Translations under genes and position numbers: made by a program | Shown here: positions 13,431 to 43,058 of the stretch, piece after piece | Position numbering within the stretch: position 1 is the stretch's first letter | Layout: the number at the start of each line of letters is the position of its first letter | The notes under the pieces: model-generated | The model's database searches: none | Seen by the model: only the letters and a program-made list of their open reading frames with translations | Told to the model about the DNA's origin: nothing | NCBI GenBank assembly: GCA_020444175.1 | Contig: JAHLLM010000032.1 | Coordinates: 186-64,185, forward strand | Direction of reading: 5' to 3' | From: Desulfobulbaceae bacterium | GTDB lineage: Bacteria > Desulfobacterota > Desulfobulbia > Desulfobulbales > SURF-16 | DNA: 64,000 bases

Positions 13431-13440
13431 ACTGACTTCC

Positions 13441-17044: not shown

Positions 17045-20000
17045 TTAGTTAATCGTTACTTGCAGATCACCGTCTTCGTTAAAAGTGTAATCGGTTCTGT
17101 TATGAAGTGAATCAAGAATCATAATCCTGATTCGGTAATCACCGGCACGATTATAGGAGTGATCGATTCCAGCGGCAATATCAGCTACAGGATCATTTGA
17201 AATGGTACGTGACCTGTCGCCCCAGTAAATGTAGGCGCGATATGCGGATGCATCAACTGTTCCTGAAAGAGTTACAGTATCAGCGGCAACTGCGGTAGCG
17301 AAATCTGCGGCCGCAACCGGATCTTCAACAACAACAGCGTTTGCGTCAACGCTTGCTGTATCACATACTGCTGACTCATCTGCACCAGTGGTAGCGTCAT
17401 CATTCAGACATACTGTAACGCTTGCCGGGTAAGCTCCTTCAGCAGAATACTGCATGATCTGAGTTGAACCAGCCGGGAAGAGCGGATTTTCACCAAGTAC
17501 GGATATACCAAGTGTTCCAGCGTTTGTATCCCAACTGTAGTTACAACCCTGTCCCCATGGAGTAAGCACACCGTCAATGAGTACAGAACAGCTTGAACGG
17601 CTTGCATTCAGCTCAACGACCATGTCATATTCCGTAGAAGAAAGAGCACTGAGCTGCGCTGTTGCCTGGTAGGTATTCTGAGCTTGAGCAACTCCAGGAG
17701 TCATCAACAGGTCAAGTGTCTGCTGCGGATAACCGAGGAACTGGTTGGCGCTCATAGCAGTAGCAATGTGACGTTTGCCGTCCATGGCAGTGGCTGCTGC
17801 GGAGTTACACGGAACAACCGCCGGAGTCATGGGATTAGGTCCGCCCAGGTAATCATAGCAGTAGGAAGCCTGATCCCAAGCTGCAACATGGTTCGGGTTA
17901 CTCGGATTCTGAGCACCACTTACACCCCATTTCACTTTCGGAGTACCGTCTGCCTTGTAAGACTGCTGCAGGTCGACCTTGAAGTGAGAAACTGCCTCGG
18001 CGCGGCCAAGCAGAAGACCCATAGGATTGTGTCCGATCTCTGCCATATCAGTCATGGCGCCTTCACAATCACCATCTTGCATACAGGCACCGTTGTTGCG
18101 GAAACCGCCAGTACATGCTCCAGGAATACCGTTACCAGGATCAGCACCAACACAGGTACCATTGATCATGCCAGCATACATTGCTGCAGAACCGGCACCC
18201 ATCATACCGTCGATAGCGGCTTCAACACCGGCATCTGCGTAGTTCGGCATACAGTTATTGACGCTCTGTCCAGCCATGGGGCTGAAGCTGATAGGACCTG
18301 CGAAAGGATTACATCCAAGTGTTCCACTTGTCTGCAGTTCTTTCAGAGCAAAGCCCTGGATACCGGCAACACCGTCATACATACCCATCTGCATTGCTGT
18401 TCCAGCCGGGAAGCCCATGGCCTGATCAAAGGTCGTAGACATCATACCGATTACATGCTGCAGTTGAGCGTTGCCGCCTGTTGTACCGAACATCGCGTTA
18501 TTGGAGAACCAGGACCATGAAGCACATTCTGCTGTCATGTTCGGCTCACCGGTCATGGGATTGAAGTAGAAATTATGATGGTCGGTATTTGGGTTAGCCA
18601 TTCCGCCCAAACCGTCATCAGCCATTTTGGATGGATCGCCTGCGCCACACATGGCGGCTGCATCGAAATCAGCAAACATGGCCATCCAGTTTTTAACGAT
18701 CTCATAACCGCCTACACCAAAGCCAGGAAGACCGGCATTGGCTACAGGCTGGGTGTAGCCTTCAAAGAAGCCCACTGAGAACGGTGAGTAGTTGGGGCTT
18801 GCAGCGTTCATTGAAGAGTGACAGCTTACGCAACCGCCGCGCTCGGAACCGCCAAGGGCCCATTCTTTCGGAACAACACCGTGGGTTACGTCAAAGTCAG
18901 CCTGAATAACGTTCAGGAAGGTGACGAAACGTGCATCAGAACCGTTTGCACCACTGTCAAAGGCAGCCATCATGGCATCGATCTCTTCTTCAGTGTCGAT
19001 TTCCCAGGAGTCAACAATCTGGAAACCGTCAAAAAGAGGTACGGTGTTGCCGCCGTTCAGACGCATATCAAACTGCGGGTTATTATCGCGAACAAATTCA
19101 GCAACACGCTGCAGGTCACGGTTTTTAACTGGTGACGGGAAAGCGGCTGTTGTAGCGTCAAGGATATTGTCCATCGGCTCGCCAGCGGCAACCATTCCGG
19201 CGTCGTCTTGTACCAATACGCCGCTGTTCGGCACCATCTCATACCAGGTGGGAAGCAGTGAAGGCAGAACAGGATAGATCTTGGTCTCGCCATTCTTGGT
19301 GGCCCATTTACGTACGGAAGGTACGCTGTTATGGGTACCGGTGACAAGGTCAAAGTTCCAGTCAAGAACGTTTCTGAAAGTTCCACGGGCAAAACCAGCG
19401 GTCCAGTCACGATATTTCAAACGGCCGGGAGCTGAATAAGTCTCAGGCACATGACAGGTCACACAACCGATTCTGTCAAGATGGAGCTGAGGCAGACCGT
19501 TATGCAGCGGAGTAGGAGCATCAAGAGTTCCGCCGTTGTCTACCAGTTTTGGGTTGTCTCGTTCAGTATGACAACCGCTGCAGCGAATCTTGGCATCCAG
19601 GTTGTTCTTTCCTTTGGTATCAGGGAAGGAATCCGCCTGGGCAAACTGATGATCCATGGCGTAAATACGCTCGGCAGGATAATCATAGCCATGATGCTCG
19701 CCGGCTGGGATATCTTCATAACCGGTTCCTGTTGTCGAACCAACTGCGTAATGACAGGTGGCACATTCCATACCGTTTTGGTCATGCACATCGATATCAG
19801 GCATCTTACCCTGAATCGGATCGCCGAAGTTCGGTACGGTATTAGGATCAGCATCAAGGGTTGAAGGAGCAAACATTGACATGCCCCAGCGACCGTTAAC
19901 ACCATAAGCATCGTTTTCTGCAGTTACTTTATGTGCACGTTTACCCATACCGGTCTTACAACCGAAATCGAACCAGTAATCGTCGTTTACAGCACCAGGA

Positions 20001-21433
20001 CCGTTGTCGGTATCAAGATCACTGCTTGCACCCATGTTTCCTGAAGGCATTGGATTTGAAGGATCATGAATAAGGCCGTAGTTACCATAACCGGTCTTCA
20101 TGGCCATCATGCCGGGGAGTCCCATGGTATTATCATCACGGGCGTGACATACGGAACAGTTCTCGCTCTTCGGTGTACCGGCGATTTGTGCGGATTCAAT
20201 CTTCACACAGTCTACGGAAGGACCGTTTACATAATAAGGTGTGGCATACTGGCCGGCACATTGGCCACCAGTAAAGGCCTGGTAGGAGTAGTCACCACAA
20301 CCGGAAACATTATATATAACGTCGCCGCTTACACATGTTCCAACGCCTGTTGTATCTCCACCAGGAGAAACAGCGCCTGCACCCCAGTCAACACCGGTCA
20401 AGTCATCAACAGCACCATCACCATCAGCATCAGTAAATGTACCTTTCGCACCGGCACCCATGGAAGCGATAAGGTCAAGACGACGCTGTTTCAGACCGAA
20501 GTTACGGTTATACATATCATATTCCGTAACACCATCGCCGATGGTAACTGTCCGGCCAGGACCTTGAGGTGTTCCTGAACATGTAGGATCAACCATCGGG
20601 CCGATTGGATTGGAAGGACCACAATCAAGGGTCTTCAACCAGGCGGAACCAGCGTTTGAACCGTCAAGATGACACATCAAACAGTCCATCTCGGCTTTAT
20701 TTGTTGCACTCATGTTGCCAACAGTGACGTTGGTCCATGATGTTTCGTCTTCAGCAGTGTTTGGATCATCGGGGCGTGCATATTTCAGAACATAGGTGTC
20801 GCCTGGTCCTTCACCTGCAGAGCCGTAGGCATTGAGATCGCGGTTATATTCCATCTGACCGCCACCAACATGACAAACGCCACAGGTGTTTACCCAGGAC
20901 TGGGCTCCCATCTCAACTGAAAGAGGATTTGTTAAAGGATCAGCATTTTTAGCCGCCAACTGGCGGTTTGAGGGAGGTCAGTACTTGCCGAACATACCGG
21001 GCGAGTTGGCCCAGAACTTACCATGAACTGCATGACGCAAATGATTGCCGTAGTCTTCATTACGACCTTCCTGGGAATGACGGCCAACAACGAAACCATG
21101 CTCATATGCGGTTGTTTCAAAGCTTACCCATTCAACTTCACCAGTTGTCTCATTCTGGATACCCTGTGTCTTAACAACTGTCCTTGTAGCTCCACCACCA
21201 TCGTAACTACCACGAGGTCCTGAAAGGCTTGTGCTGCCATCTGCCTCAACAACATGATCATGACACGCGCCACAGGTCATTTTAGGGCTGTAGGGTGTCG
21301 TAGAATCAGCAATGATAGTACCAGCAGTATCCCGCAAAGGAACTGACGGATGGGCAAATGCATTGCTGCCGGCCATCAGAGCTGCGGTTGCCAGGGCTGA
21401 AACAACTAAGCCACTTTTATACCTTTTTTTCAT
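17045..21433 (-). CDS. putative selenocysteine-containing exported octaheme cytochrome c, 1462 aa (U152), with C-terminal PKD-like domains
   Basis: ORFs 20978-21433 and 17045-20959 are in one frame joined by TGA at 20978-20980, reading GMFGKY*PPSNRQLAAKN. Signal peptide and CGACH lie upstream, 7 CxxCH downstream; SECIS-like hairpin; same junction in the paralog. Confidence 0.85.
20951..20980 (-). promoter_or_regulatory. UGA codon plus candidate bacterial SECIS element
   Basis: UGA-CCUCCCUCAAA-CCGCC-AGUU-GGCGG; the stem starts after an 11-nt spacer. Confidence 0.75.
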
Positions 21434-25967: not shown

Positions 25968-26963
25968 TTAACTCAGGGTCCGCTCAATCTTGGCATTCTT
26001 TTTCAGATCTTCCAGGTAGGTATTGAATTTTTTCTCAATCTCCTGTTGTTTGAGCCACGGTATCAATTTTTCTTTAACCTCATCAAAAGTCATTGTGCCT
26101 TCAGCTTTCTTGTCGGTCAGTTTGATAATATGGTAGCCGAATTTCGTTTCCACCACATCGCTCACATCACCCACATTCATTGAGAAAGCGGCATCCTCAA
26201 AAGGTTTGACCATCTGGCCTTTGCCGAAAAAGCCGAGGTCGCCGCCATTGGCACTGCTGGGACAGGAAGAATTGGTTTTAGCAAGCTCTGCAAAATCACC
26301 GCCATCCTTAATCTGCTTGCCAACGCTCTCAATCTTTTCATGAGCTTCTTTCTTTGTGGCTTCATCCGCATTTTCATCTACGGAAACAAGGATATGACTG
26401 GCCTTAACCTGCTCAGGCTGTTTGAACATATCCTGGTTCTCGGCATAAAATTTCTCTGCATCTTTATCAGTGACAACCGTGGTTTCGGTAAATTCAACTT
26501 TTAAAATATCCTGCAGTTTTTTCAGGGCCATGCTTTTTTCTATTTCAGCCTTCATCTCTTCTTCAGAAACCTGTTTCTCTTTTAAAAAGTCCTGAAACGC
26601 GGCCTCATCGGGAAACTGTTTTTTAAACCCGGCAACCGTATCGTCAACCTCTTTTGGATCAATAACGATACCCTGCTTGCTGCTCTGCTGATGAAGCAGT
26701 TCAACATTGATTAAGCGATCAAGGACCTTATCGTTCAGCTCAGTCATTTTAGCAGGATCCGATTCCTGCCAGCCGACTTTGGCAAACTGCTCTTTGGCGG
26801 CTAAAAGATTCCTGTCAAATTCCTCTTTACTGATTTTTACACCGTTGACAGTGGCCACACTGTCATCCTCTGCAGCACCAGCTCCTGTCACGCTCACAAC
26901 AAAAAACATTGAGAGCATAAGAAGGGTTGCTATCAGATTTTTTCTCCAGACTGTTTTTTTCAT
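25968..26963 (-). CDS. peptidyl-prolyl cis-trans isomerase, PpiC/SurA-PrsA type
   Basis: Start ATG 26963 (AGGAG RBS); signal peptide; canonical ASHILV, GGDLGFF, MVKPFEDAAF, FGYHII. Confidence 0.93.
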   Translation of the reverse strand: MKKTVWRKNLIATLLMLSMFFVVSVTGAGAAEDDSVATVNGVKISKEEFDRNLLAAKEQFAKVGWQESDPAKMTELNDKVLDRLINVELLHQQSSKQGIVIDPKEVDDTVAGFKKQFPDEAAFQDFLKEKQVSEEEMKAEIEKSMALKKLQDILKVEFTETTVVTDKDAEKFYAENQDMFKQPEQVKASHILVSVDENADEATKKEAHEKIESVGKQIKDGGDFAELAKTNSSCPSSANGGDLGFFGKGQMVKPFEDAAFSMNVGDVSDVVETKFGYHIIKLTDKKAEGTMTFDEVKEKLIPWLKQQEIEKKFNTYLEDLKKNAKIERTLS

Positions 26964-27367
26964 GATTTCTCCTAACCCAGATGAACTGGTTGATTGAGAT
27001 TTGGTTCTTTTCAGTTTGTGCAGTTGGAGAATAGGATCATCCAAAAATGCCCAGGCAACTGAAACGCAAAAAGCTTTAGTGTCTCATAACGAAACTGAAT
27101 GCCATAAATTCCTAATGGATTCGCACTGTCAATCCATGATCCTTCCCTCTTCAAAAAAAGCAAGAGGAGCCCCCCAACATTGGCTTGACACTTAACTCTG
27201 CGAAATGATAGAAAATGAAAGACATCAGCAAAAAAGATATTTATACATAGTTACTTATGTTGTGGAAATAGACAACATTTTCCGTTAAAGGTTTCAAGTT
27301 CTACAAAAAAAGATACAGAACATCAATACGGAGTGTGAAGTTAAGATTCAACAGGAGGGAACTTTCA

Positions 27368-28546
27368 ATGGTATCACTTTCGCAAATGCTTTGTTTTATT
27401 TTCACTTTTTTTCTTTCAGGTGCTCTGGCCTCAACGGGATTTGCCCATAACCCTATTCTTGACAAAGGAAAAGACAAACACAAAGACCCAGAGAAGCTGA
27501 TGAACAAGAGTTCCTTCTGTATTGAATGCCATCAAGAAGAAACTCCTGGAATTTTTGAAGAATGGCTGAAATCAACCCATGCCAGAACAGGAGTGGGCTG
27601 TGCCGATTGTCATGCCACAGACGCGAAAGAATATGATACTTTTCTCCATGCAGAAAAACATTATATACGGACCGTTGTCAGCCCGATAATTTGCGCCAAA
27701 TGCCACAAAGACATACAGCGCGACTACTTCACAAGCGGTCATGCACAAGCTCTTGAGGTTCTGAAAACTATAAAAGAGGATGATCCCAGGTTTCCAGTCG
27801 TCTCTCTTTATAAGGATGATAACTTCCAGCAATGCTCCGGTTGTCACGGCGGCGAGGTCGCACTTGACGACAACCATCTTCCGGATGAGGCTACCTGGCC
27901 TGATAGCGGAGCCGGACGCATCAACCCCAATACAAGTCACGGCAACTGCTCTTCATGTCATCTCGGTCACCGCTTCTCCTCTGCAGCCGCCCGCCAGCCG
28001 GAAACATGCCTTCGCTGCCACGACGGCAGGAACTACCCGGAAGGAGATATCTACCGCAGTTCTGCCCACGGAATGGTTTATGCCACTCAGACAGACAAAG
28101 AAAACCTTGGAAAACTTGGATTTTACTTTACCGGCAAAGACATGGTTGCCCCCACCTGCGCTTTTTGCCATTTCAACGGATCAGGACATGGCCAGCGGAC
28201 CCGCCACAATGGAGCATGGCGTCTGCCCCGGGATCTCACCCACCCGGAAGCCCCCATGGCCCCTAAAAATGCCGACAAACTGCGAAGCAACATGAAAGCA
28301 GTGTGCAACCAGTGCCATGCCAAAACTGTTATTAATCGCTTTTTTGATAATGCGGACAAAAGACTTGCCGAATATCAGGAAAAAACGGTACAGCCAAAAC
28401 TGAAAGAATACCGCCGCAAACTTGCGGAAGTAAAAGAAGGGACTGAGCGGGAAAATATCATTAAAGAGTACACACGATTTCTTGCTGAGGGTAAACGCTA
28501 TCGCATGAATCTCTATATGGGAAATATCGGGCGCACCCAGAGATAG
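27368..28546 (+). CDS. octaheme cytochrome of the hydroxylamine oxidoreductase (HAO)-like family, short C-terminus
   Basis: Start ATG 27368 after AGGAGG; signal peptide; CIECH, CADCH, CAKCH, CSGCH, CSSCH, CLRCH, CAFCH, CNQCH with WP.SG.GRINP, HRFS...AR.PETC and APTCA spacing. Confidence 0.82.
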   Translation: MVSLSQMLCFIFTFFLSGALASTGFAHNPILDKGKDKHKDPEKLMNKSSFCIECHQEETPGIFEEWLKSTHARTGVGCADCHATDAKEYDTFLHAEKHYIRTVVSPIICAKCHKDIQRDYFTSGHAQALEVLKTIKEDDPRFPVVSLYKDDNFQQCSGCHGGEVALDDNHLPDEATWPDSGAGRINPNTSHGNCSSCHLGHRFSSAAARQPETCLRCHDGRNYPEGDIYRSSAHGMVYATQTDKENLGKLGFYFTGKDMVAPTCAFCHFNGSGHGQRTRHNGAWRLPRDLTHPEAPMAPKNADKLRSNMKAVCNQCHAKTVINRFFDNADKRLAEYQEKTVQPKLKEYRRKLAEVKEGTERENIIKEYTRFLAEGKRYRMNLYMGNIGRTQR

Positions 28547-28706: not shown

Positions 28707-30440
28707 ATGAACGGCAATGAGACGTGCATGTCAAAAAAGATAAAAAAGCTTGCCCGAAAAAAAAATCTCAGAAAACCTATCTTGCCGGATGGCAAAACGG
28801 ATACGCTCTTTCAACTGGCCGTACAGCACCACCAGGCAGGAAGATTCCTGGAAGCTGAGCAGCTTTATCAAAAGGTGCTTGCCAGCCATCCAAACCATGC
28901 CGATGCCAATCATTTTCTTGGACTTATTGCCCATCAGATGGATAAGAACGACACAGCTGTGCGGCTTATCAAAAAGGCAATTCGTGCCAACCCCCGCCTT
29001 GCTAATGCCCATAACAGCCTGGGTGCCGTTTATAGAAAAACAGGCAAACTGAAAGATGCGCTCACCCATTACAAAAGAGCCATCACACTACAGGCCGATT
29101 TTGCCGAGGCTCACAGCAACCTTGGCAACGTTTTTAACGAACTTGGACTTTTCGATGAGGCAATTGACTCGTACCGAAAAGCGCTGGCCATAAATCCCAA
29201 TGACAGTGAGGCCCACTCCAGCCTTATTTTTGCCTTAAACTATCACCCCGACGTCAGCCCTGAAGATATCTACAAGGAATCAGTGAGCTGGTCAAAACAT
29301 CACAGCAGACAACGAAATGACAATGAAACCACAACAGAGAAGCGGGCTTCCAAACGACTATTAAGGATAGGCTACGTATCCCCTGATTTTTATCATCACC
29401 CGGTAGGCCGCTTTCTCCTGCCTGTTCTGCAAGAACACGACCGCAGCGCATTTGAAATTTTCTGTTATTCAAACACCTCAAAAAATGATGCCTGGACAGA
29501 AAAAATAAGAGCAAACTGCGATCACTGGTTTGACATCACCAGTAAAACTGATGACGCAACGTGCAAGCAAATAACAGAAGACAGGATAGATTTACTTATT
29601 GATCTTGCCGGCCACAGCGGAGGAAACCGGCTCGGCATTTTTTCGGGCAGGGCGGCACCTGTTCAGGCCAACTGGCTTGGCTACGTGAATACAACCGGCC
29701 TTGCTGCCATGGATTACCGAATTACGGATGACATTGTCGACCCTCCGGGCAGTTCCGAGAATCATTACACCGAAAGCCTGATACGTCTCCCTGACGGTTT
29801 CTTTTGTTTTTCGCCACCCGAACAATCCCCGAAAATAGTGGAACCGCCTGCCCAGAAAACAGGCATGGTTACCTTTGGCTCAACAAATAACATCAGCAAA
29901 CTCAACTCAAATGTTATTTCTCTCTGGTCACAAATTCTGGTCTCAATCCCTAAGTCCAGGCTGCTGATAAGAAGCAAGGCCTGTACAGATGCTGCAGTGA
30001 GGAAAAACCTCCTTGCCCAATTCTGCAGAAGAGGAGTGGCCGCCCATTGTATTGAATTTCTGCAAGGGACCACCTTTGACAATTACCTCAGAGCCTATAA
30101 CGAAATCGATATTTGCCTCGATACTTTCCCCCATAACGGACACACAGTCTCATGTGACGCACTGTGGATGGGGTGCCCCATCATTACCTTGCGGGGAAAC
30201 CGTTATGCTGGACGAATGGGGGCCGATCTGCTCAGCCGGCTCGATCTTGCTGAGCTTATAGCGGAAACAGAAAAACAATACATCGACATTGCAACGGCAC
30301 TTGCTGGTGATCTCAACCGACTTGCCATGTTAAGGAGTGAAATACGCCCCCGCTTTCTCCATTCTTCACTTTGTGATGCAAAACGTTTTACCCATTCTCT
30401 TGAGACGGCGTTTCAAAAGATAATTAAAGAGAAATATTAA
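28707..30440 (+). CDS. TPR-repeat O-GlcNAc transferase-like glycosyltransferase (GT41/SPINDLY family)
   Basis: TPRs, then RIGYVSPDF..HPVG, DLAGHS, APVQANWLGY..TTGL, LDTFP.NG..DALWMGCP; start could be 28728. Confidence 0.9.
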   Translation: MNGNETCMSKKIKKLARKKNLRKPILPDGKTDTLFQLAVQHHQAGRFLEAEQLYQKVLASHPNHADANHFLGLIAHQMDKNDTAVRLIKKAIRANPRLANAHNSLGAVYRKTGKLKDALTHYKRAITLQADFAEAHSNLGNVFNELGLFDEAIDSYRKALAINPNDSEAHSSLIFALNYHPDVSPEDIYKESVSWSKHHSRQRNDNETTTEKRASKRLLRIGYVSPDFYHHPVGRFLLPVLQEHDRSAFEIFCYSNTSKNDAWTEKIRANCDHWFDITSKTDDATCKQITEDRIDLLIDLAGHSGGNRLGIFSGRAAPVQANWLGYVNTTGLAAMDYRITDDIVDPPGSSENHYTESLIRLPDGFFCFSPPEQSPKIVEPPAQKTGMVTFGSTNNISKLNSNVISLWSQILVSIPKSRLLIRSKACTDAAVRKNLLAQFCRRGVAAHCIEFLQGTTFDNYLRAYNEIDICLDTFPHNGHTVSCDALWMGCPIITLRGNRYAGRMGADLLSRLDLAELIAETEKQYIDIATALAGDLNRLAMLRSEIRPRFLHSSLCDAKRFTHSLETAFQKIIKEKY

Positions 30441-30653
30441 ATTTGGGTATTTCACCCCTATTTTTTTCAAATTGGGCAATTAACCCGCCAAGCATTGCGG
30501 ACATTCCCCCTACATGATACCCTGTGGCATGCCCAACAAAGCGTGAAATGAAGCTTATTGTGTTGAAAAAATTTTTTTCCCCGCCTCTAACCCCCTGACA
30601 TAAAAAGACAAGACAAAAACCATTGGGTAATTCACCCGCCACCTTCCCATCCA

Positions 30654-30669
30654 AGGCACACTGCTTGCT
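30654..30669 (+). promoter_or_regulatory. sigma54 (-24/-12) promoter
   Basis: AGGCACACTGCTTGCT = GG-N10-GC, ~170 nt upstream of ATG 30839. Confidence 0.75.
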
Positions 30670-30838
30670 ATAAAGCTCATGTGAGTTCCCCACTCATGAA
30701 GTGCGCGTTACTAGTTGTGTGATTTCTCTACACCAATTGGATTGGGTGCAAAATGAATGGACCCGGTCGGCACACCCCCCAAAGCTGCTATCAAATGGTG
30801 TTGAAAAATCAAAAAAAAGAAAACTTAAGGAGTTAAAA

Positions 30839-33800
30839 ATGAAAAAAAGCTATAAAAGCGGTCTGATAGTCTCAGTCATAGCCGCAGCAGCGTTTATGGT
30901 GAGTGCCTCAGCTCAGGCCTTTACCCATGATCGTGTCACCTTGCGGGATGCCTCAGGTGCTGCTCTTGCCGCTGTTGATACTGATGCTGACGGCATCGGC
31001 GATGCAGTTCCGGCTACTGCTCCTGCGTACAGCGCCAAAGAAACGTGTGGCGCGTGTCATGCCTATGATGCTATTGAGCGTCATTCTTTCCATGCTCAGC
31101 TCGGGGCCAACGAGCACAAAGGTTGGAATGCCTGGGCAATGGGTAACTGGAACTCTATTGCTACGAAAGGAAAACCCTGGGTTCAGTCGCCAGGACATGC
31201 AGGCAAGTGGTGACCTCCTTCTGCTCGGCAGTTTGCTCGAGTATTCGGAAATGATATGTCATCCTTTAACGCTGCTGATAAAGGCAAGTACTACAGTGAT
31301 AACGACAATGATGGTTCTTATGATGGCGGCACTGTAGATAAAATGTGTAACCCTTTTGGTGTCCAGATGGTTCCAGGCTGGCCAAAACCTGGCTGTGTCA
31401 ACGTTAAACCTCTGACCCAGGCCCCGGTCGACTTTGCTGCCGGACCTTTTGACTTTGGTTCAACCACTGCCTTTGCAGCCAAGGTGGACAACTCAGTAGC
31501 CGGCCAGATGCGTGACTGTGCTGAATGTCACGTTGGTGGCGGCATGATGGAATACATCCCAGTATCCGGCTCCACTGATCTATCCGCCGGAACATGCGAA
31601 ACCAGGACAGAATTCTTTGACTCAGACAAAGACGGTGTTGCTGAGCAATATGACTCTAACGGCGGCGTAGCATGTGATGCCTCTGATCAGGGCACGCAAA
31701 TCTGCGGAACCTATCCCTACACATATGGCACCAAAAACTTTCAGTGCATCCCTGCCAACAGTCGTCAGGAACTGCGTAGCGCAACCCTTACCGGCGTCAA
31801 TACCTTTAATTATTTCATCGACCAGTATGATGAGAACAACGACGGTTCTATCGGCGAGGTTATTGCTCAGGACTATAATGACACCGGTGTTCTGGAGATG
31901 GACTGCCTGATGTGCCATCTTGACGGATATTCCTGGGAAGACAGGAAAGAAGCCATACGCAAAGGCCGCTTTGATGCGTCCCGTGCCCAAGGTGCCGGGA
32001 TTGGTGTCGTTGTTGACGCAAGCGGCGACGGCATGATCGGTGCCGGTGACGGCAATGTAGTTTCCTATGATGCCGCGGCTATCAGCGTAAATTCAAGCGG
32101 CGAGTTGACCCTGGGCGCCACCGGACTTAACGTTCACGGCTCAACTCCAAGTGAAAACTGTAACAGCTGTCATGGTGACCTGCACCAGGTTGACTGGAAG
32201 AAACGCGGTGACTCATGGACCGGCGACTACGGCAACGATGTCCATGCTGCAATCGGCTGTATCGGTTGTCATGATCCTTCAGTTAAATGGGCTGCAGACG
32301 GTACTGACGCTGACCACGGCTGGCGTGACTACATGGAAAGCCTGAACCTTGACGGTAAGGGATCCAGCGCAGTACTTGGCCACGACCCTGCTAAAGGAAA
32401 TGCCCCATACAGTTCACTGTGGAACAAGACAGACAACTCAATCGTTGGCTGTGCGGGCTGTCACTCCGGTGCTCCTACAGCAGCTGAAACCTTTGATGCT
32501 GCCGATCCAACTGCAAAGCATGAGGCTTTGGGCCTGACTTCCATCATCGCCCAGGACGGCCGTGACGGTGTCCGCGATATAAGCCATATCGAGCTCCTCG
32601 ACTGCTCCGTCTGCCATGTGCGCAAACTTGGCCGCGGGCCTTCCGCAGTTGAAGGCGGCACAACACACGGTTCACTCTACGAGTGGGGTACCGGTGGCGC
32701 CATGGTTGACTCCACCGGCACCGACGCTGATGGACGCCTGACCGACCACGAGAACCTCTATGTAGAGCGTACCATGGAAGACAACCTGTGCTACTCATGG
32801 CAGGGTTCCAAGCTCACAGCGAGAAACGCCCTGGTTACCATGTTCTGGCGTGACAAAGACGACAACTTTGCAAATGGCGGAGATCCGGCTTACTTTGACG
32901 TCAATGCTGATGGCCAGACAGGTGCTATGGATGCGGTTAATCCATCCCATGTCCGTGATGCCATGGCTGCTGCGAATCTTGATGTTCTGACCCACGATGG
33001 TATTATCGATGACGCTGAAATAGCTGCCCAGCAGACTGCACTGGCTAACTACCTTGCTGATAACGATGCAGATGGATACAGTGACATTCTTGGCACCTGT
33101 ATGTCCACCTCCTGTGGTAATGTTGCAGACTGGACAAAAGGCAAATTAAAACTGTCCTTCATGGGTGTTACATTCAAGGTTAACCATAACATCAGTCCTG
33201 CGGGTACTGCCCTGGGTAAAGGTGGTTGTCTTGACTGTCATGGTGCCGGTACTGTTTACAGCGGCTCCTACGATCTCAAGCCACGCGACCTGGATGCAAG
33301 CTGGGACAACACCTCTCCAACAGGCGAGAACAAATGGGTTGTTCCTTTCACCAAGGTTAACAATGCTGATTACGACGGCGACGGCGTAGTTGAAGGCGGC
33401 GACAAAGGGGACTGGCAGTTTTCTGACTTCCATCCAACTCTGTTTGCCAAAGGCCTGAAAGGACGTTCCATTGCTGTAACTGCTGCTAAAGGCGGCGCGG
33501 ACACTATTCGAACCATCGATCGTTCCGAGCTTCTTTATGAAGGCGACTCCACAGTAACTGGTGGTCCTGGTGCACGTACCATGGTTGACGGTACAGTGGC
33601 CACTGGTCGTGCAGCAATCGTTGCGGCTCTTGACAACGTTACCGACGCTATGCATAACCGTCATGTTGCTGCCGGCTATGGTAAGTGTTCAACCTGTCAT
33701 GACAACGGTGCAGGCGGACTGAATCTGTCCAAAGCGGGCGTATCTGATCTCGGATCCCTGTATGCTTTTACAGTAGTTGATGACGGTCTTGGCAACCCGC

Positions 33801-34450
33801 TGACCTGTTCAGCCAATGCCTGTCATGGCGACAACGGTTTCTCTGATGATGTTGCCTGGGAACTGGCAAGTGAAGTCAGTGTAACCCCGTACCTCAGCGC
33901 TCTTGCCGACCAGGATTATGATATGGTTGTTGAGCTCAACGCCAGCAGGTCAAACTGCGATAACGGTTGCGTGAGTTACAGTTGGGACACTTCAGGCGGT
34001 ACTGTACTTGGTGAACCGACGGACGAATTTGGCGCTCTCCTTTATCCCGCCGGTTCCGCGCTAGTTGTCCAGTACGGAGACACCAGTCAACACACTGCGT
34101 CTATTACGGTTACGGATGCTTCTGGTGAAATGAGGGCAACAAGCGTCAGCTTTACTCCTCAGATCGTTACTGATCCGGTAACAGGAGCTGATTTTACTTC
34201 TGCGGTTGCCGGGAATGACGTGACTCTTTCAGCAACAGTTGATGCATCTGCTTATCGCGCCTACATTTACTGGGGCGACAGGTCACGTACCATTTCCAAT
34301 GATCCTGTAGCCGATCTTGCTGCTGGAATCGCTCACACCTATAATCGTGTCGGCGATTACCGAATCAGGGTTATGGTTCTTGATTCACTTCATAACAGAA
34401 CCGATTACACTTTTAACGAGGACGGTGATCTGGAAGTAACGATTAATTAA
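30839..34450 (+). CDS. putative selenocysteine-containing exported multiheme cytochrome c, 1203 aa (U125; 9 CxxCH + CX4CH), with C-terminal PKD-like domains
   Basis: Start ATG 30839 (AAGGAG). TGA at 31211-31213 is in frame with ORF 31256-34450, reading SPGHAGKW*PPSARQFARVF. Signal peptide occurs only upstream of the TGA; SECIS-like hairpin follows. Confidence 0.85.
31211..31242 (+). promoter_or_regulatory. UGA codon plus candidate bacterial SECIS element
   Basis: UGA-CCUCCUUCU-GCUCG-GC-AGUUU-GC-U-CGAGU; hairpin with a bulged U. Confidence 0.75.
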
Positions 34451-34522: not shown

Positions 34523-34648
34523 TGTTTAGGGTTGGCTTTATAGAGCATGTTGAGTATAAAGTTTATTGTAAGAATTACGTATTAAGCTGGTGGATGAGAA
34601 TAATCCATGACTCTCATCTTACACCTTACCCCTCATTCCTCGCACATT

Positions 34649-36724
34649 ATGAGCCTCAGAAAACTCAAACGCAAACGTTCAAAAAGTGCCCAGAAAAATC
34701 TGACCAGATCCTTTGGGACAGCCGACCCGGACCAGCTTCTTCAAATCGCCCAAAAACACCATCATGCCGGGGATCTTGGGCAGGCTGAAAAGGCTTACAG
34801 GGAATTACTCCGGGCCTTTCCGAATCATGCGGCGGGCCACAATGATCTTGGTGTTCTTTTTCACAGCCTGAACCAACCCCAAAAAGCTCTTTTCCACTAC
34901 AAAAAAGCTGTATCTCTCAAGGCGGATTACCCACAGGCTCTTATCAACTCAGGCATCATCCTCATGGACCAGGGAGAATTTGATGAAGCGGTTGGCCTTT
35001 TTCAGCGAGTGCTCGACTCCGCCCCCACCGACATAGCAGCCCTGACCAACTTAGGCACAGCACAACACAGGCAGGGTAAACTTAGCGAGGCACTTGACTC
35101 GTTTCGTCAGGTTTTGGCCCTTGACCCCAATGATCTTTACGGGCTGAACAATCTGGCCCTTGTTTTGAAAGACCTTGGCGAGCTTGAGGAGGCCGAATCG
35201 ATCTTTAGTAAGGTAATCAGGCTGCAGCCCAGCGCAGAAGCCCATCATGGTCTTGGCCTTATCCACCGCAAACAGGGCAAACAGAATGATGCTGTTCAGT
35301 CCTTTCAGAAAGCCCTTGAGATAAACCCGGACGGAATTGATTCCTGGAGAAACATCGGCATTATTTATACCGAAAAAATGGAATTCGAAAAGGCCATTGA
35401 CGTTTATGAAAAAATCATCAACCAAAAACCTGATGATACGGAAAGCCTGAATAAACTTGGCTTGTTACACCAGAAATGCGGGAAACTGGAGGAGGCTGTT
35501 TCCTTCTTTCGGAAGGCCCTGCAGCTACAACCCGATTTTCTTGAAGCCCGAGCAAGTTTTGCCGAAACATTAGAAAAATACAACAAACCCGAAGAAGCCT
35601 ATCAAGAGGTCCTTAACGGTCTTGAAATCGCCCCACACGATATAGAACTGCAAACCATCGCGGCAACCTGCGAGAGGCGTCTCGGCAAGCAAACTGAGGC
35701 CCTTGAACGCCTCAGCCGACTGGAAACATCGGACCTGCAACCGGATCTGCAGAGAATGCTTTTCTTTGAGCTCGGTTATCTCCATAATAAATCCGGCAAT
35801 ACGGAAAAGGCATACAGTGCTTTTGCCGCAGCCAACCGTGCCTCGCAAACCATTAACAGCACTATTGATAAAGATTTTTTTACGCGCCGCATCGATCTGC
35901 TGCAGGAAGAATTTCAAAACATTACCTCCTTGCCCGAAATTGCTCCCGAGCTCCTGGGCAGAGCCCCTGTCTTCCTGGTCGGTTTTCCACGCTCAGGCAC
36001 CACACTGCTTGATCAAATTCTTGACAGCCATCCCCTGGTGCAGACCATGGAGGAAAAAGACATTCTTGCCCGGCTTGAAAACAAAGTGGCTGCCCCTTTT
36101 GAAAACTACCTTGCAGCCTGGCAGAAACTGACAAAAGAAAATATCACCGAACTGCAGGAAGAGTATTATCAGGGGGCTGCCCAGTATCTCACACATGAAC
36201 CTGGAACGATTTTAATTGACAGAAACCCCTACAATACCATGCGATCCTCGCTCATATGGCGGCTTTTCCCTGATGCGAAAATCATACTGGCCATACGGCA
36301 TCCTTTGGATGTCTGTCTCAGTTGTTTTATGCAGAATTTTAAAATCAATGTTGCCAATGCAAATTTCTTCACCATCGACGATGCAGCTGAATTCTACCGA
36401 AAAATCATGCAATTATGGCAGCTTTTCGAGAAAACGCTTCCCCTGAATTATCACATTGTCAGATATGAAGACCTGGTTGCTGATCTTGAAGGAGAAGCAC
36501 GAAAAGTCATTGATTTTCTTGAACTGGAATGGGACGAAAGAAGCCTTGCCTTTCATGAACACGCCCAAGCTAAAAGCCGCATCAAGACAGCGAGCTATCA
36601 TCAGGTGACGCAACCGATATATAAAGATGCAAGATACCGCTGGCTCAGGTATGAAAAATACGTTGGGGCTGCCAGGGAAAAGCTGGCGCCATTTATAACG
36701 TATTTTGGCTATGAGAATGTGTGA
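34649..36724 (+). CDS. TPR-repeat sulfotransferase family protein
   Basis: Long TPR array; FLVGFPRSGTTLLDQI, RHPLDVCLS, RYEDLV, QVTQPIY; start 34649 or 34607. Confidence 0.92.
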   Translation: MSLRKLKRKRSKSAQKNLTRSFGTADPDQLLQIAQKHHHAGDLGQAEKAYRELLRAFPNHAAGHNDLGVLFHSLNQPQKALFHYKKAVSLKADYPQALINSGIILMDQGEFDEAVGLFQRVLDSAPTDIAALTNLGTAQHRQGKLSEALDSFRQVLALDPNDLYGLNNLALVLKDLGELEEAESIFSKVIRLQPSAEAHHGLGLIHRKQGKQNDAVQSFQKALEINPDGIDSWRNIGIIYTEKMEFEKAIDVYEKIINQKPDDTESLNKLGLLHQKCGKLEEAVSFFRKALQLQPDFLEARASFAETLEKYNKPEEAYQEVLNGLEIAPHDIELQTIAATCERRLGKQTEALERLSRLETSDLQPDLQRMLFFELGYLHNKSGNTEKAYSAFAAANRASQTINSTIDKDFFTRRIDLLQEEFQNITSLPEIAPELLGRAPVFLVGFPRSGTTLLDQILDSHPLVQTMEEKDILARLENKVAAPFENYLAAWQKLTKENITELQEEYYQGAAQYLTHEPGTILIDRNPYNTMRSSLIWRLFPDAKIILAIRHPLDVCLSCFMQNFKINVANANFFTIDDAAEFYRKIMQLWQLFEKTLPLNYHIVRYEDLVADLEGEARKVIDFLELEWDERSLAFHEHAQAKSRIKTASYHQVTQPIYKDARYRWLRYEKYVGAAREKLAPFITYFGYENV

Positions 36725-36978: not shown

Positions 36979-37806
36979 TTATTTAAGATGACAGGTCAGA
37001 CAGAAACCACTGTTGCGGTCAGACTTCCACAGGAAGGTCTCACCGGTGTTTTTGGTGTTATGTACGTCATGACATGTTACACATTCCATCATCTCGCCCC
37101 CATAAAGCAGGGATTTGATGGTGGTCATCTCTTTTGCGCCTGCACCGGCACCATTAATGACGGTATCAGGATCGGCAATTTCGTCGTCCACGCTTGCTAC
37201 ATCAAGATAGCTGAAGCCGATTGGATGATGGTTGACCAGGTTACCGCCGCCACCGATTTTAAACTGATCAGCGATGAAATGGGTACCGGCGCTCTGTGAA
37301 TTTGAACGCTGCGGATCAAAACCATACTCGTTAACTGCTACAGTACCATCATGACAGCTCAGACAGAGACGTGAAACAGAGCCCGGCTCGCCTTGTGTAT
37401 CCCTGCCGTTGAACAGGTGACGATCTGCAAATTGTTCCGTATCACTCACTGTTCCAACACCAGCAAGACCAGAGGCGGTTGGTCCTTCGCCGAAATCACT
37501 CTCATACAGGTTATAGAACTGTGTGGTTACACCATGGTTCCACAGGGGCAGATATTTGATACCTGCAGCATCAGCTTCCTGAAGAGCGTGATGAGGTGCA
37601 TGACAGTAAATACAGATACGATCCAGAGAATCAGTCTGACCGTAAGAGCCACCAATACCGGTAGCAATACTCAGGTCATGCTTGGAACCAACAATGCCTG
37701 TACCAGCAGCAGCATTAAAAGAACCAGTAGTTGAATTCTGAGCTTGAGCAGTCCCAACGACAAGAAGTCCAAAGGCGGCTGCTAAGAGAATACTTTTTTT
37801 CATCAT
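36979..37806 (-). CDS. OmcE-like tetraheme c-type cytochrome
   Basis: Start ATG 37806/37803 after GGAGG; signal ending AQA; SKHDLS, ICIYCHAPH, PLWN, LCLSCHDG, NHHPIGF, ECVTCHDVH, FCLTCH in the order recalled for Geobacter OmcE. Confidence 0.8.
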   Translation of the reverse strand: MMKKSILLAAAFGLLVVGTAQAQNSTTGSFNAAAGTGIVGSKHDLSIATGIGGSYGQTDSLDRICIYCHAPHHALQEADAAGIKYLPLWNHGVTTQFYNLYESDFGEGPTASGLAGVGTVSDTEQFADRHLFNGRDTQGEPGSVSRLCLSCHDGTVAVNEYGFDPQRSNSQSAGTHFIADQFKIGGGGNLVNHHPIGFSYLDVASVDDEIADPDTVINGAGAGAKEMTTIKSLLYGGEMMECVTCHDVHNTKNTGETFLWKSDRNSGFCLTCHLK

Positions 37807-37958
37807 CTTTCCTCCAACTTGCGACATTAGTCATTTTGACATTTGTCACTTTTTTACAATTAGCTGTTCTCAAATAGAACAGCTTCCCATGAATTTCCCC
37901 AAATTACATGAGCGCGTTACAAGTATGATCACGTAAAGATCATTCTGCGGAGGAGTAT

Positions 37959-37974: not shown

Positions 37975-38434
37975 CAGCACAGCAGCCAAAAGGCCTCGAG
38001 ATGAAAACCTCGAAAGAACAGCAAGTTAGACAGAGAAACACGATCACCGGAATTACTAACAATGAATTTTATAGGGGGGTTTCCCCCTATGAATGCGTTT
38101 TATCACCCAAGAGGCCGGAATCATGAGTATGTACAACTATCGCGAACACGACGCACCTTCCCATAAAGATCTTGATTTTTTTGCGTTTTGACAGCATCAT
38201 TGTTAGAAATGTGGTGATTTTTCAAAAAAGATTGTGCATCAGGCACATTTTTTGAATACAAAAGGACCTTAACGCAAAATTTGCATTACTCATTTTTTTT
38301 ACATTCATGCCTTTCAATTCTCCTTACTGCCGGGTTTATTTAAAAAATACCTGGAACTAATTTTGGACAAAGGGCACCTTAACTACTACAGAGTCGGAAC
38401 TTTCTTGAGATTAACATTCAACATGGTTGGGCAA

Positions 38435-39703
38435 ATGAGCAGAATTAATAATTTCTTGTATCAAAGTTTGATGAAGTCGCAAAAAGTCCTGAGGTTGACC
38501 ATCCGCCAACGAAATATCAACAACTTACACACGTTTCGGCGGCGGTCGAAAGGTTTTTTACGAGACCGTCAAAGTTTGTTACTTGTATTTCTGATGACAT
38601 TTACGATTCTCAGTGGCTGCGTGTCAACTCCTGAACCAGTTGAGAACGACGAAGCTGTTTTCTTCCCCGATCCCCCTGCTCCTCCCCGGGTCCAATTTCT
38701 GACAAGTTTTACCTCTTCTACCGATATAACTGAAGAAGGAAGCGCTTTTGACTCATTTTTAACCGGCAGCACAAGCGAGGGGTATCACCTTGTTAAACCT
38801 TATGGAGCAACCATTCATGATGGCAAAATTTATGTTTGCGATTCTCAATCAACGGTTGTTGTTTTTGATGTAAAAAATAAAAAATTCCATCAGCTTGAAG
38901 GCGCAAAAGGACTGGGGAAAGTTGTTCAGCCGTTAAATATTTATCTTGATGCAGACAATAACAAGTTTGTGGCCGATCCTGTCCGCGGTGAAGTGCTCAT
39001 GTATGACAAAAACGACTTCTATGTCAAAAGCTTCGGACTCCCAGGCAGTTGGAAACCCGTTGATGCAGTTTCCTATGAAGGGCTTCTCTATGTCGTTGAT
39101 TCAGAGGCTCGAGAAATAAAGGTTTTTGATATTGAGACAGGTGAAAAAATCACTTCCTTTGGCAGAAACAACAAACCGGAAGAAAATCTTGGCTTACCAA
39201 CAGGCATAACAATAGGGCCGGACGAACTTCTCTATATCAGCGACTCCGGAAGATTCCAGGTTGTCATCTATGACCGGGACGGCCATGAAAGGGGAGCCAT
39301 CGGCAAACCGGGCGCTAATCTCGGCCATTTTGCCAGACCAAGGGGAGTTGCTGTTGATCGAACAGGTCGTGTTTTTGCTGTGGATGCAGCCTTTGAAAAT
39401 GTGCAGATTTTCCGCAATGACGGACAGCTTCTTCTCTTCTTCGGCGGCTCAGGAACCACTCCGGGAAGACTTTTTCTCCCTGCCGACGTTTCCATCGACT
39501 ATGACAATATTGAATATTTCAAACAGTACGCCGACCCTAACTTTGACATCGAATTTCTTGTCATCGTAACAAGCCAGTTTGGTCAACGCCTTGTCAATGT
39601 CTACGGTTTTGGTAAAGAAAGAGGGAGAACCTACCCCAGCGAAGATGAGCTGCTGCAAAAATCGGAAGAAAAACTGCAGAAATGGTTGAAACAGAGCAAG
39701 TAA
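38435..39703 (+). CDS. NHL-repeat beta-propeller lipoprotein
   Basis: Lipobox LSGC; FPDPP.PPRVQFL; P.G...D/G..YV.D repeats, GHFARPRGVAVD. Start uncertain; the signal peptide is interrupted by an in-frame MITE. Confidence 0.85.
   Translation: MSRINNFLYQSLMKSQKVLRLTIRQRNINNLHTFRRRSKGFLRDRQSLLLVFLMTFTILSGCVSTPEPVENDEAVFFPDPPAPPRVQFLTSFTSSTDITEEGSAFDSFLTGSTSEGYHLVKPYGATIHDGKIYVCDSQSTVVVFDVKNKKFHQLEGAKGLGKVVQPLNIYLDADNNKFVADPVRGEVLMYDKNDFYVKSFGLPGSWKPVDAVSYEGLLYVVDSEAREIKVFDIETGEKITSFGRNNKPEENLGLPTGITIGPDELLYISDSGRFQVVIYDRDGHERGAIGKPGANLGHFARPRGVAVDRTGRVFAVDAAFENVQIFRNDGQLLLFFGGSGTTPGRLFLPADVSIDYDNIEYFKQYADPNFDIEFLVIVTSQFGQRLVNVYGFGKERGRTYPSEDELLQKSEEKLQKWLKQSK
38469..38571 (+). mobile_element. 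MITE family A, copy 5 (103 bp, in frame within a CDS)
   Basis: TGATGAAGTCGCAAAAA...TTTTTACGAGACCGTCA; 5-bp duplication AAGTT. Confidence 0.8.
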
Positions 39704-39721
39704 AATATTGGTTTATTGCAA

Positions 39722-41825: not shown

Positions 41826-41942
41826 TAGTGTCATGTCAAATGCCTTTTGACGCCTGCTGTAGGTCGGGAACCCATTCCCGACACTGAAGAGTCGCCATGG
41901 GTACGGCGATCTACACGACAATTGAAGCTTGACATGACACTA
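41826..41942. mobile_element. MITE with 14-bp perfect inverted ends (TA-bounded, IS630-like)
   Basis: TAGTGTCATGTCAA ... TTGACATGACACTA; internal GTAG-GTCGGGAA-ccca-TTCCCGAC hairpin. Confidence 0.65.
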
Positions 41943-41996
41943 GCTGTAAACGGCGTTTTACCAGCTGACAAAAAATTACTTTTAAGGATTATCCAG

Positions 41997-43058
41997 ATGA
42001 AACTCATTCGCACCACCTGTACAGGAATTCTAACGGCCCTCTTTTGCAGCCTTGTTATTGCAACAGTCACTCCAGTTCATGCCTTCAAAGGAATCGGCTC
42101 CAGCGGTGGGGCAATGATGAACCAGGATGACGGCACCCCCCAGAACATTACCATCGAGGGGCATGGGGAAAACGCCGATGTGGTTGTTGCGACTGTCAAC
42201 GGCGTCAAGATCACCATGGGAACACTGATGAATTCCATGATGGAGAACATCGTGCAAAAAGGGTACAGCATGGACAATCTCTCTTCAGAGCTGACCAGAC
42301 GTATCCGCAGTGAATCCCTTGAGCAGCTTGCCCTGGAGGAATTGGCCTACCAACGCGCCATATCTCTGGGCATTTCCGCTGATCCGGCTGTTGTCCAGGC
42401 TCAACTTGATGCCCAGATACAAAGCAAGGGAAGCCGCGAAGCACTGGATGCTGACCTGTCTAAAAAGAATAAAAGCTTTGACGATTTGAAAAATGAAATC
42501 ACCCGTTATATGATCATCAAGCAACTGATCAGGCAGGAAGTTAACGACAATGTTACGGTTTCACCAGAGGAAATTGATACTGTATACCAAAATAACAGAG
42601 ACGAGTTTGTCACCAAAGAACGGGTTGTAGTGACTGACATCACCTTTTTTCTTGATCCCGCCGACCCTGCTTCAAGAGAGAGAGTTCTGGCTGTAAAAAA
42701 AGAAATCTTGCAGGAGCATGGGGGCGACCCAACTGCATTAACACCTCAAGGCTTTGTAGTGCGGAATCAGATCAATGTTTCTACAGAGAACCAAAACCCG
42801 CTTTACGATGCGGCAAAAAAGCTTGAGGTGGGCTCTTTCTCCGACCCACTGGTAATCGACGGCACGCTGCACCTTATAAAATTTGATTTCCATGAACCCC
42901 GCACAGAAAAACCTGTTAAAGAAGCAAAGGCCTATGTTGCACAAAAGATAAAAGCGGCCAAACACCGGGAACTCCTAGCCAACTGGCGCAAAAGCCTTAT
43001 CGACGAAGCTGACATTAAAATTGTCCACGAAATGCTGCAGGATAAGCACGAGGACTGA
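41997..43058 (+). CDS. SurA/PpiC-like exported foldase (degenerate parvulin domain)
   Basis: Start ATG 41997 (the upstream extension runs through a MITE); signal peptide; VVATVNGVKIT, LEQLALEELAYQRA, VGSFSDPL..DGTLHLI. Confidence 0.78.
   Translation: MKLIRTTCTGILTALFCSLVIATVTPVHAFKGIGSSGGAMMNQDDGTPQNITIEGHGENADVVVATVNGVKITMGTLMNSMMENIVQKGYSMDNLSSELTRRIRSESLEQLALEELAYQRAISLGISADPAVVQAQLDAQIQSKGSREALDADLSKKNKSFDDLKNEITRYMIIKQLIRQEVNDNVTVSPEEIDTVYQNNRDEFVTKERVVVTDITFFLDPADPASRERVLAVKKEILQEHGGDPTALTPQGFVVRNQINVSTENQNPLYDAAKKLEVGSFSDPLVIDGTLHLIKFDFHEPRTEKPVKEAKAYVAQKIKAAKHRELLANWRKSLIDEADIKIVHEMLQDKHED

Follow-up and report, generated by a model that had tools for sequence, protein, structure and literature searches.

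The window analysed here, a stretch of 64,000 nucleotides from a Desulfobulbaceae bacterium (assembly GCA_020444175.1, contig JAHLLM010000032.1), holds two long multiheme cytochrome genes with an in-frame TGA codon, paralog 1 on the minus strand and paralog 2, our main subject, on the plus strand. Translation of positions 30839-34450 yields one frame of 1203 codons followed by TAA, and the sole internal stop in this frame is the TGA at codon 125 (nt 31211-31213), in the context SPGHAGKW*PPSARQFARVF. The table-11 list of open reading frames (ORFs) breaks the frame into a 5' piece running to 31213 and a 1064-aa ORF at 31256-34450. An earlier reading of the DNA alone (the original prediction) had joined these pieces across the TGA into a hidden selenocysteine (Sec) multiheme cytochrome, and the single frame with its one internal stop bears out the join. 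On the evidence presented below, UGA-125 is very probably decoded as Sec.

A predicted exported cytochrome with one internal TGA

Paralog 2 contains ten heme-attachment motifs, nine of the type CxxCH and one CxxxxCH; heme 1 precedes the UGA and the other nine lie past it. As had been predicted, the export signal, MKKSYKSGLIVSVIAAAAFMVSASAQA, is confined to the part upstream of the TGA. The 1064-aa downstream ORF starts with the hydrophilic sequence MSSFNAADKGKYYSDNDNDG, and reading the sequence directly we found neither an export signal of its own in this ORF nor a Shine-Dalgarno-like sequence ahead of its ATG at 31256, while AAGGAGTTAAAAATG is present upstream of the start codons of both Sec paralogs. 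Cytochrome c maturation requires export. Nine of the ten heme motifs lie past the UGA and could not mature without export, and the signal lies only before it. The 14 codons from the TGA to the first downstream ATG are, in addition, conserved as PPSxRQxA. Taken together, these observations make it highly likely that positions 30839-34450 encode one exported selenoprotein and not two ORFs. The predicted product is an exported, soluble multiheme c-type cytochrome, periplasmic or secreted; it has no lipobox Cys and is thus not a lipoprotein.

Paralog 1 has the same layout, with a signal peptide and a CGACH heme 1 before the TGA, followed by the Sec site (SPGMFGKY*PPSNRQLAAK) and the same order of hemes. 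In paralog 2 this order is CAECHVGGGMMEY, EMDCLMCHLDG, PSENCNSCH, DVHAAIGCIGCH and GGCLDCH, and in paralog 1 it is CGVCHVGGGQMEY, EMDCLMCHLDG, PKSENCSVCH, DVHDQNGMECATCH and GGCVSCH. The common site motif (SPGHAGKW*PPSARQ versus SPGMFGKY*PPSNRQ) and the shared heme order, both claimed in the original prediction, were thus confirmed on reading the two translations. The 3' ends of the two genes (34160-34450, plus strand; 17045-17335, minus strand) are nearly alike as DNA over the last ~230 nt, with a mean column identity of 93% over 291 aligned nt, and assembly contigs fork at 34223-34227; the N-terminal regions have only 63 of 183 residues in common. The likeness of the 3' ends suggests gene conversion or a common constraint on the final PKD-like domain.

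The genome contains a third paralog of the family, on another contig (L024:1501-3195; contig C37 of the genome, G000, from about 146118 onward), so that two are Sec-type and one is Cys-type. The third carries TGT at the site, and its peptide GKY-C-PPSNRQLAAK corresponds to GKY-U-PPSNRQLAAK of paralog 1. Cys forms orthologous to the third paralog occur in two related genomes (L116, L117).

Table 1 Positions of the two Sec-type cytochrome genes and their features in the window
Feature	Positions	Strand	Details
Ribosome-binding site AAGGAG	30827..30832	+	6 nt upstream of ATG; read from sequence
Full coding sequence, paralog 2	30839..34450	+	1203 codons including UGA-125, then TAA
Sec-type signal peptide, residues 1-27	30839..30919	+	Ends AQA, no lipobox cysteine; read from translation, not from a predictor
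Heme 1 motif CGACH, residues 70-74	31046..31060	+	Upstream of UGA
In-frame TGA, proposed selenocysteine 125	31211..31213	+	In G-K-W-U-P-P-S-A-R-Q
SECIS-like hairpin, paralog 2	31222..31243	+	From folding and family comparison
Heme 2 motif CAECH, residues 227-231	31517..31531	+	Followed by family-invariant GGG
Heme motifs 3-10	31904..33826	+	CLMCH 356, CNSCH 441, CIGCH 474, CAGCH 538, CSVCH 589, CLDCH 797, CSTCH 950, CSANACH 990
Two C-terminal PKD/Ig-like domains	33917..34405	+	Residues 1027-1102 and 1120-1189
Paralog 1	17045..21433	-	1462 codons; TGA codon 152 (nt 20980-20978) in G-K-Y-U-P-P-S-N-R-Q-L-A
SECIS-like hairpin, paralog 1	20953..20966	-	CCGCC-AGUU-GGCGG, begins 11 nt past UGA, -9.4 kcal/mol

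Evidence for selenocysteine at codon 125

We searched 301 genomes of the order with the first 254 residues of paralog 2. Matches were found in 26 of them, and all 29 matches that span residue 125 contain exactly one TGA; the frames stay open past it, most for ~1000-1460 aa and a few for less. In a sample of 401 genomes spread over the phylum, 46 matched, and a hand count of the listing gave 53 rows with one TGA and 10 site-spanning rows without a stop. A search with the N-terminus of paralog 1 added further TGA-type genes, along with four stop-free matches. Among the matches that bear TGA, identity to the query goes down to ~31-37%. When a hidden Markov model of the 32 residues around the site was run on six-frame translations of the fetched loci, it located 76 distinct sites, of which 74 are TGA, one TGT and one TGC, a ratio that is not an unbiased frequency because the loci comprised the best-scoring 30 per search. 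None of the 76 sites is TAA or TAG, and the loci showed no frameshifts. Both flanks of the TGA are conserved as protein with paralog 1 and the relatives, and all 70 distinct read-through N-termini from other genomes start with a hydrophobic, signal-peptide-like stretch. The original prediction had invoked the same stop in two copies against a sequencing error or a pseudogene, an argument that the recurrence of TGA at 74 sites, well beyond chance, upholds.

Alternation of Cys and Sec, which the original prediction had named as a check, is seen at the exact position in relatives and in the Cys-type paralog of the same genome. Rows without a stop were fetched separately, ten of them found in the phylum sample and two in the order sample, and gave nine Cys codons and two Ser codons; for one such row, locus L124, no site was given. 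Among all 13 non-TGA sites in the fetched loci, 11 are Cys and two Ser, and the third paralog of the genome accounts for one of the Cys sites. We built a quick maximum-likelihood tree with IQ-TREE from 84 rows (71 Sec, 11 Cys, 2 Ser); it is midpoint-rooted, long branches were flagged, and its sampling is biased. Sec forms occur in every deep clade of this tree and the Cys and Ser forms are nested among them, requiring at least six state changes, at least four of which are forced by well-supported branches. The pattern is consistent with an old Sec state that was repeatedly lost. Two loci are apparently recent conversions: L097, a TGC copy that keeps the hairpin described below and whose sister in the same genome (G143) has TGA, and L126, whose Ser codon TCA is one base off TGA and which also keeps the hairpin.

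The same break recurs in public protein sets, where we tallied 44 aligned sites and 15 ends among 230 proteins. The 15 ends are cluster representatives of 108-167 aa that stop exactly at query residue 124 (P0108, P0124, P0131 and 12 more). Most of the 97 near-length public hits begin past the site and cover ~55-73% of the first 500 residues; these truncated bodies (P0002-P0096) are without signal peptide, heme 1 and Sec site, and where named at their source they are called "hypothetical protein", "PKD domain-containing protein" or "cytochrome c3 family protein". Such pairs of stub and truncated body are a systematic annotation error over many genomes. In the aligned public relatives, the site column holds Cys in 18 cases and Asp in 10, with fewer Asn, Ser, Tyr, Leu, Gln, Phe and Arg.

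The machinery for Sec insertion, whose genes the original prediction had proposed to look for, is present in the genome (5.42 Mb, 90 contigs). Profile searches detected selB (368 bits), selA (622 bits), selD (379 bits) and tRNA-Sec (67 bits), the last of which ARAGORN reports as tRNA-SeC with anticodon TCA; within the window ARAGORN found no tRNA. The selD gene (contig C79 of G000, 89271-90194, minus strand, L010) itself carries one in-frame TGA, which makes it probable that one enzyme of the Sec system is a selenoprotein made by that system. Across the order selB scores over the cut-off in 270 of 301 genomes; with selB near-universal, its co-occurrence with the TGA form does not discriminate, and its presence is necessary only. 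No selB match at E<=1e-60 was obtained in G181 (88% complete) or G210 (85% complete), both of which bear the TGA form. In the window TGA terminates 9 of 35 long ORFs and so is not globally reassigned, and genetic codes 4 and 25 were rejected accordingly.

Shortly past the UGA lies a hairpin resembling a selenocysteine insertion sequence (SECIS), a feature absent from the original prediction. In paralog 2 it begins 8 nt past the UGA and has a GUU loop on a stem of 9 bp that is interrupted by a single bulged U; its upper stem-loop, GGCA-GUU-UGC, begins 14 nt past the UGA, and the 60-nt fold has a free energy of -13.3 kcal/mol. A hairpin of C-AGUU-G type is found in the 48 nt past the UGA in all Sec-type loci listed, with its stem beginning 11-14 nt past the UGA. 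The loop follows a C-AG[U/G][U/C]-G type pattern, with variants AGGU, AGGC and AGAU, or GUU with a bulged stem. In three variants with a two-residue insertion the stem lies 6 nt later and is rebuilt from AGC...GCU codons. In the third, Cys-type paralog RQLA is coded as AGA CAG CUU GCG and the hairpin is gone (-1.6 versus -9.4 kcal/mol in paralog 1). An Rfam search of the whole window at the gathering threshold reported no SECIS family, only a 6S RNA.

We scored these hairpins by criteria for bacterial SECIS elements (bSECIS) taken from an excerpt of a 2026 review (PMC13188914), namely a loop of 3-9 nt, a stem of >=4 bp, a G in the first two loop positions, a spacing of 16-37 nt and a minimum free energy (MFE) of -7.5 kcal/mol or lower. 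By the criteria as excerpted, the MFE structure qualified in 65 of 73 Sec-type loci, in 405 of 7300 sequences recoded synonymously for these peptides (5.5%) and in 2 of 13 non-Sec loci; paralog 1 qualifies outright and paralog 2 only with a bulged stem allowed. Judged by predicted folds, the SECIS-type hairpin is specific to TGA-bearing forms and decays once TGA becomes a Cys codon. Bacterial SECIS such as that of E. coli fdhF, as described in the same excerpt (PMC13188914), likewise place the stem-loop inside coding sequence; compared with the fdhF type, the upper stem here is short, 5-8 bp, and lies on conserved R-Q-L-A codons.

Because RNAalifold predicted no pairs, we named the helix by hand and counted its pairs on an alignment of 27 sequences. 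In the named helix 79.4% of the cells pair, versus 69.8% in shuffles, none of 500 of which reach 79.4%, and at most 65.6% for slid partners. Compensatory change on both sides is seen in four of its seven pairs. One of the pairs (U-A 13, C-G 7, G-C 3) joins a third codon position to a first codon position, and another (C-G 16, U-G 6, A-U 2) includes CGA...UCG, in which Ala is replaced by Ser through the compensating change.

Several points weigh against the proposed selenoprotein. Eight of the 73 Sec-type loci fail the excerpted bSECIS criteria as scored, and paralog 2 is among the eight under the strict rule of >=4 contiguous bp because the bulge interrupts its stem. RNAalifold gave no consensus structure on the 45-nt alignment of 27 sequences, and the z-scores of single-sequence folds are modest (-1.39 and -1.58). 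The hairpin falls within the conserved R-Q-L-A coding sequence, so that part of its conservation is shared with the peptide. The tallies of loci are biased towards the 30 top-scoring loci of each search, with hand-picked non-stop loci added. Close relatives (P0027, P0100, P0132) read W-D-PPSARQ, with Asp and not Cys at the Sec position, and in more distant relatives the site is occupied by Asn, Ser, Tyr, Leu, Gln, Phe or Arg.

Two other accounts of the UGA have to be weighed. Read-through without Sec, by near-cognate insertion of Trp, Cys or Arg, or a selenium-sensing switch at which translation mostly terminates to a short monoheme protein, would draw on the C that follows the UGA at all 74 sites, UGA-C being a weak termination context in E. 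coli. It is nevertheless very unlikely, as the hairpin tracks the TGA in the counts given above, the Sec machinery is complete and the replacements are mostly Cys (11 of the 13 fetched non-TGA loci). Still more improbable is a true stop, leaving a pseudogene or a 124-residue exported monoheme cytochrome with a separate 1064-residue protein: table-11 gene calling yields exactly such a split, public sets hold the pieces separately and an ATG does exist at 31256, but the stop is TGA at the same codon down to ~31-37% identity and never TAA or TAG, with no frameshifts seen, Cys codons take its place in relatives, the codons between it and the ATG are conserved, and the downstream ORF would have nine export-dependent heme motifs with neither a signal peptide nor a Shine-Dalgarno-like sequence.

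The Sec machinery, the Cys/Sec alternation, the SECIS-type hairpin and the single upstream export signal thus support a selenocysteine multiheme cytochrome, as originally predicted. In the mechanism that we propose, the hairpin past the UGA would recruit SelB with Sec-tRNA(Sec) to the ribosome at UGA-125, Sec would be inserted, and translation would carry on to a pre-protein of 1203 residues. The N-terminal signal peptide would then take the pre-protein across the inner membrane, where ten c-type hemes would be attached, giving a soluble ten-heme cytochrome, located in the periplasm or secreted, with a pair of PKD/Ig-like domains at its C-terminus.

Relation to known heme proteins and the role of Sec-125

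The only characterised multiheme selenoenzyme is MccSep, published in 2026, in which a Sec beside a heme attacks polysulfide or selenite (PMC13510729). This protein, MccSep / ExtKL (GSU2937-2936; NCBIfam NF040886), is a five-heme selenoprotein polysulfide reductase of Geobacter sulfurreducens (PMC13510729). Paralog 2 would resemble it in being exported, in carrying several c-type hemes and in having a single Sec encoded by UGA, and both come from the same phylum. In both cases the gene is annotated as two ORFs, a hairpin lies directly past the UGA, and the family comprises both Sec and Cys forms, the latter nested among the former (PMC13510729; our tree). The site motifs are also superficially alike, S-P-G-H-x-G-K-W-U-P-P-S-x-R-Q here and AGH-x-x-P-D-G-U-P-x-x-N-R in ExtKL, the latter read from the six clean frames among eight loci fetched from other genomes of the phylum. 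The architectures differ. MccSep is a protein of ~450 residues with 5 hemes, and its Sec, near residue 325, sits on a C-terminal Ig-like domain (PMC13510729), whereas paralog 2 has 1203 residues and 10 hemes, with the proposed Sec at 125 between hemes 1 and 2. Furthermore, the Sec domain of MccSep adjoins a His/Cys-ligated heme 2 (PMC13510729), and its ligand Cys239 has no counterpart in the family described here.

Neither paralog matches NF040886 (cut-off 250 bits) at E<=0.01, and a genome search with this profile gave no match at the paralog coordinates. Homology of the Sec loops was rejected as well, since a profile comparison aligns only 24 columns around a heme motif (probability 55%) and leaves the Sec sites unaligned. 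By its predicted features the family is not MccSep but a different, much larger architecture with the same general solution.

The excerpted part of the 2026 review names three heme-linked selenoprotein families, ExtKL (NF040886), GSU2204 (NF041027) and an octaheme of the tetrathionate-reductase family (TIGR04315), the latter two being like the present family in having CxxCH motifs and one Sec (PMC13188914). The GSU2204 profile did not match the paralogs, its matches in the genome lying on other contigs and under the cut-off, and the octaheme profile TIGR04315 (OTR) gave no match at E<=0.01 in the NCBIfam scan of the paralogs. At this threshold that scan assigned no family, TIGR01904 being the only, sub-threshold hit (17.2 bits). 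In the literature that we found, multiheme selenoproteins appear only in the MccSep paper, its preprint and the 2026 review. We found no description of the present family in the literature searched or in NCBIfam; the supplements of the large selenoproteome screens that the review cites might list it under another name.

Residues ~321-484 of paralog 2 match the Pfam families Cytochrome_C7 (41.7 bits) and MtrC/MtrF domain II/IV (PF22113, 40.5 bits against a cut-off of 30, residues 321-483), and its C-terminus matches PKD (31.8 bits, over the cut-off) and PKD_4 (20.4 bits, under the cut-off). With the MtrC/MtrF/OmcA decahemes paralog 2 shares about ten hemes, the PF22113 match and a gene island of multiheme cytochromes with SurA-like peptidyl-prolyl isomerases (PPIases) and NHL-repeat proteins. 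Unlike MtrC and OmcA, it has no lipobox; its match to PF22113 is single and partial, and that of paralog 1 reaches only 22.8 bits. The N-terminal Sec module and the C-terminal PKD domains are absent from the MtrC/MtrF/OmcA family. An outer-surface decaheme lipoprotein of MtrC/OmcA type was rejected, there being no Cys after the signal peptide and, of the MtrC domain arrangement, only the one partial PF22113 match.

A sequence search of the PDB with the full protein gave 0 matches at E<=1. AlphaFold2, run on the mature protein with a 65-row alignment, gave a model with a mean predicted local distance difference test (pLDDT) score of 71.9 and a predicted template modelling (pTM) score of 0.67. 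Both C-terminal domains are modelled with beta-sandwich strands at pLDDT ~85-95. Among the top 50 Foldseek matches in the PDB listed, there are only tandem domains of immunoglobulin (Ig), fibronectin type III (FN3) and PKD type (best E 1.8e-5), and none is a relative of the heme domain.

Residue conservation was measured over 70 Sec-type sequences in which five deep clades are sampled. Heme 1 is nearly invariant, with C70 in 70/70, C73 in 69/70 and H74 in 69/69 Sec-type relatives. The N-terminal module conserved across the five clades of this large Desulfobacterota family comprises heme 1, H85, S117, G119, G122, U125, P126, P127, S128, R130, Q131, heme 2 (C227, C230, H231), the invariant GGG and further hemes. 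Its site motif, S-x-G-x-x-G-x-[WYHFM]-U-P-P-S-x-R-Q, stands between the invariant His and heme 2, and position 125 is part of the most conserved non-heme motif of the family. No non-heme cysteine is conserved across the Sec-type sequences.

Sec-125 is probably redox-active and probably lies next to heme 1 or heme 2, where the heme chain has one of its ends, as suggested by its place in this motif between hemes 1 and 2, by its usual replacement with Cys and by the analogy with MccSep. It may act as a nucleophile or electron relay to an extracytoplasmic substrate, for which polysulfide/S0, selenite or some other species of a chalcogen or metalloid would be candidates. We hold this functional reading to be much less certain than the decoding as Sec. 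The lack of a conserved second cysteine speaks against a simple copy of the MccSep mechanism, the analogy in function is not backed by homology to MccSep, and in the AlphaFold2 model the Sec loop (mature residues 77-96 and 98-102) has pLDDT <50, so that we draw nothing from the model about the surroundings of residue 125.

Alternatively, Sec-125 might be not a free nucleophile but the distal axial ligand of heme 1 or 2 (His/selenolate), with a very low potential or as a dissociable ligand switch. His/Cys-ligated hemes are known in TsdA, SoxAX and MccSep (PMC13510729). Over the first ~630 residues of the 70 Sec-type sequences, H85 and H469 are the only invariant histidines outside the motifs, while at least four heme motifs (70, 227, 356, 538) are invariant; there is no conserved non-heme cysteine to play the part of the heme-ligating Cys239 of MccSep, and Cys is the commonest replacement. 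Against ligation stand the Asp, Asn, Ser, Tyr and Leu found at the site in relatives, Asp even in close ones; such residues indicate that residue 125 is dispensable for the fold and fit poorly with a strictly required heme ligand. In addition, the subfamily of paralog 2 has 13 conserved non-motif histidines for 10 hemes, and the structure model is uninformative at the Sec loop. We therefore regard the ligand as unlikely. The wider proposal, in which a ten-heme wire ends at Sec-125, either as a ligand of the heme iron or as part of a catalytic centre that includes heme 1 or 2, is similarly doubtful. No selenolate-ligated heme is known from nature, and the ligand case would be the first. If either form held, heme-selenium enzymes outside the cytoplasm would have a second class in this widespread family, one that evolved independently and acts in anoxic sediments on species of sulfur, selenium or metalloids.

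Apart from the role of Sec-125, the finding is real. The selenoprotein family is new and has so far gone unannotated; it falls within a known kind, the Sec-containing multiheme cytochromes, as a second such family that is unrelated to MccSep and much larger. It is widespread (46 of the 401 sampled phylum genomes), mostly in the TGA form. Public sets contain only a stub and a body without signal peptide, first heme and Sec, and as a result these genes are misrepresented in the annotation, cytochrome counts and metabolic models of sulfur-cycling and electroactive Desulfobacterota. With two Sec-type paralogs and one of Cys type, a single genome offers a natural three-way comparison in a testable system for selenium next to a heme chain, and the hairpin would show clearly how a SECIS can be built into the codons of a conserved peptide.

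Sequencing reads and neighbouring genes

Contigs from the RNA library of one sample match the gene with 0 differences at 31499-31755, 32300-32589 and 32887-34151, all past the UGA; this library may also hold DNA. None of these contigs bridges the UGA at 31211 and the bins at 30868-31403 are without RNA cover, a gap from which we draw no conclusion. DNA contigs cover 30600-34282 with 0 differences, in a run that may be the source of the DNA itself and is thus not independent support.

The two Sec cytochrome genes lie in an island with at least seven further multiheme cytochrome genes (12114-14439, minus strand; 27335-28546, plus strand; 36979-37827, minus strand; 44154-50601, plus strand). SurA-like PPIases are encoded between the cytochrome genes at 15712-16800, 25968-27044 and 41847-43058, and NHL-repeat proteins at 38363-39703 and 43078-44157. 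Two genes for tetratricopeptide repeat (TPR)-sulfotransferases and one for a TPR-glycosyltransferase-41 (GT41) protein flank the Sec cytochrome, at 22502-24142, 34607-36724 and 28707-30440 (plus strand). Two ORFs in the island, of 699 aa (39716-41815, plus strand) and 351 aa (50766-51821, plus strand), have no Pfam match at E<=1e-5. Further along the window, the 6S RNA reported by Rfam (RF00013) occupies 62519-62697 on the minus strand, with 54.1 bits against a gathering score of 46.4.

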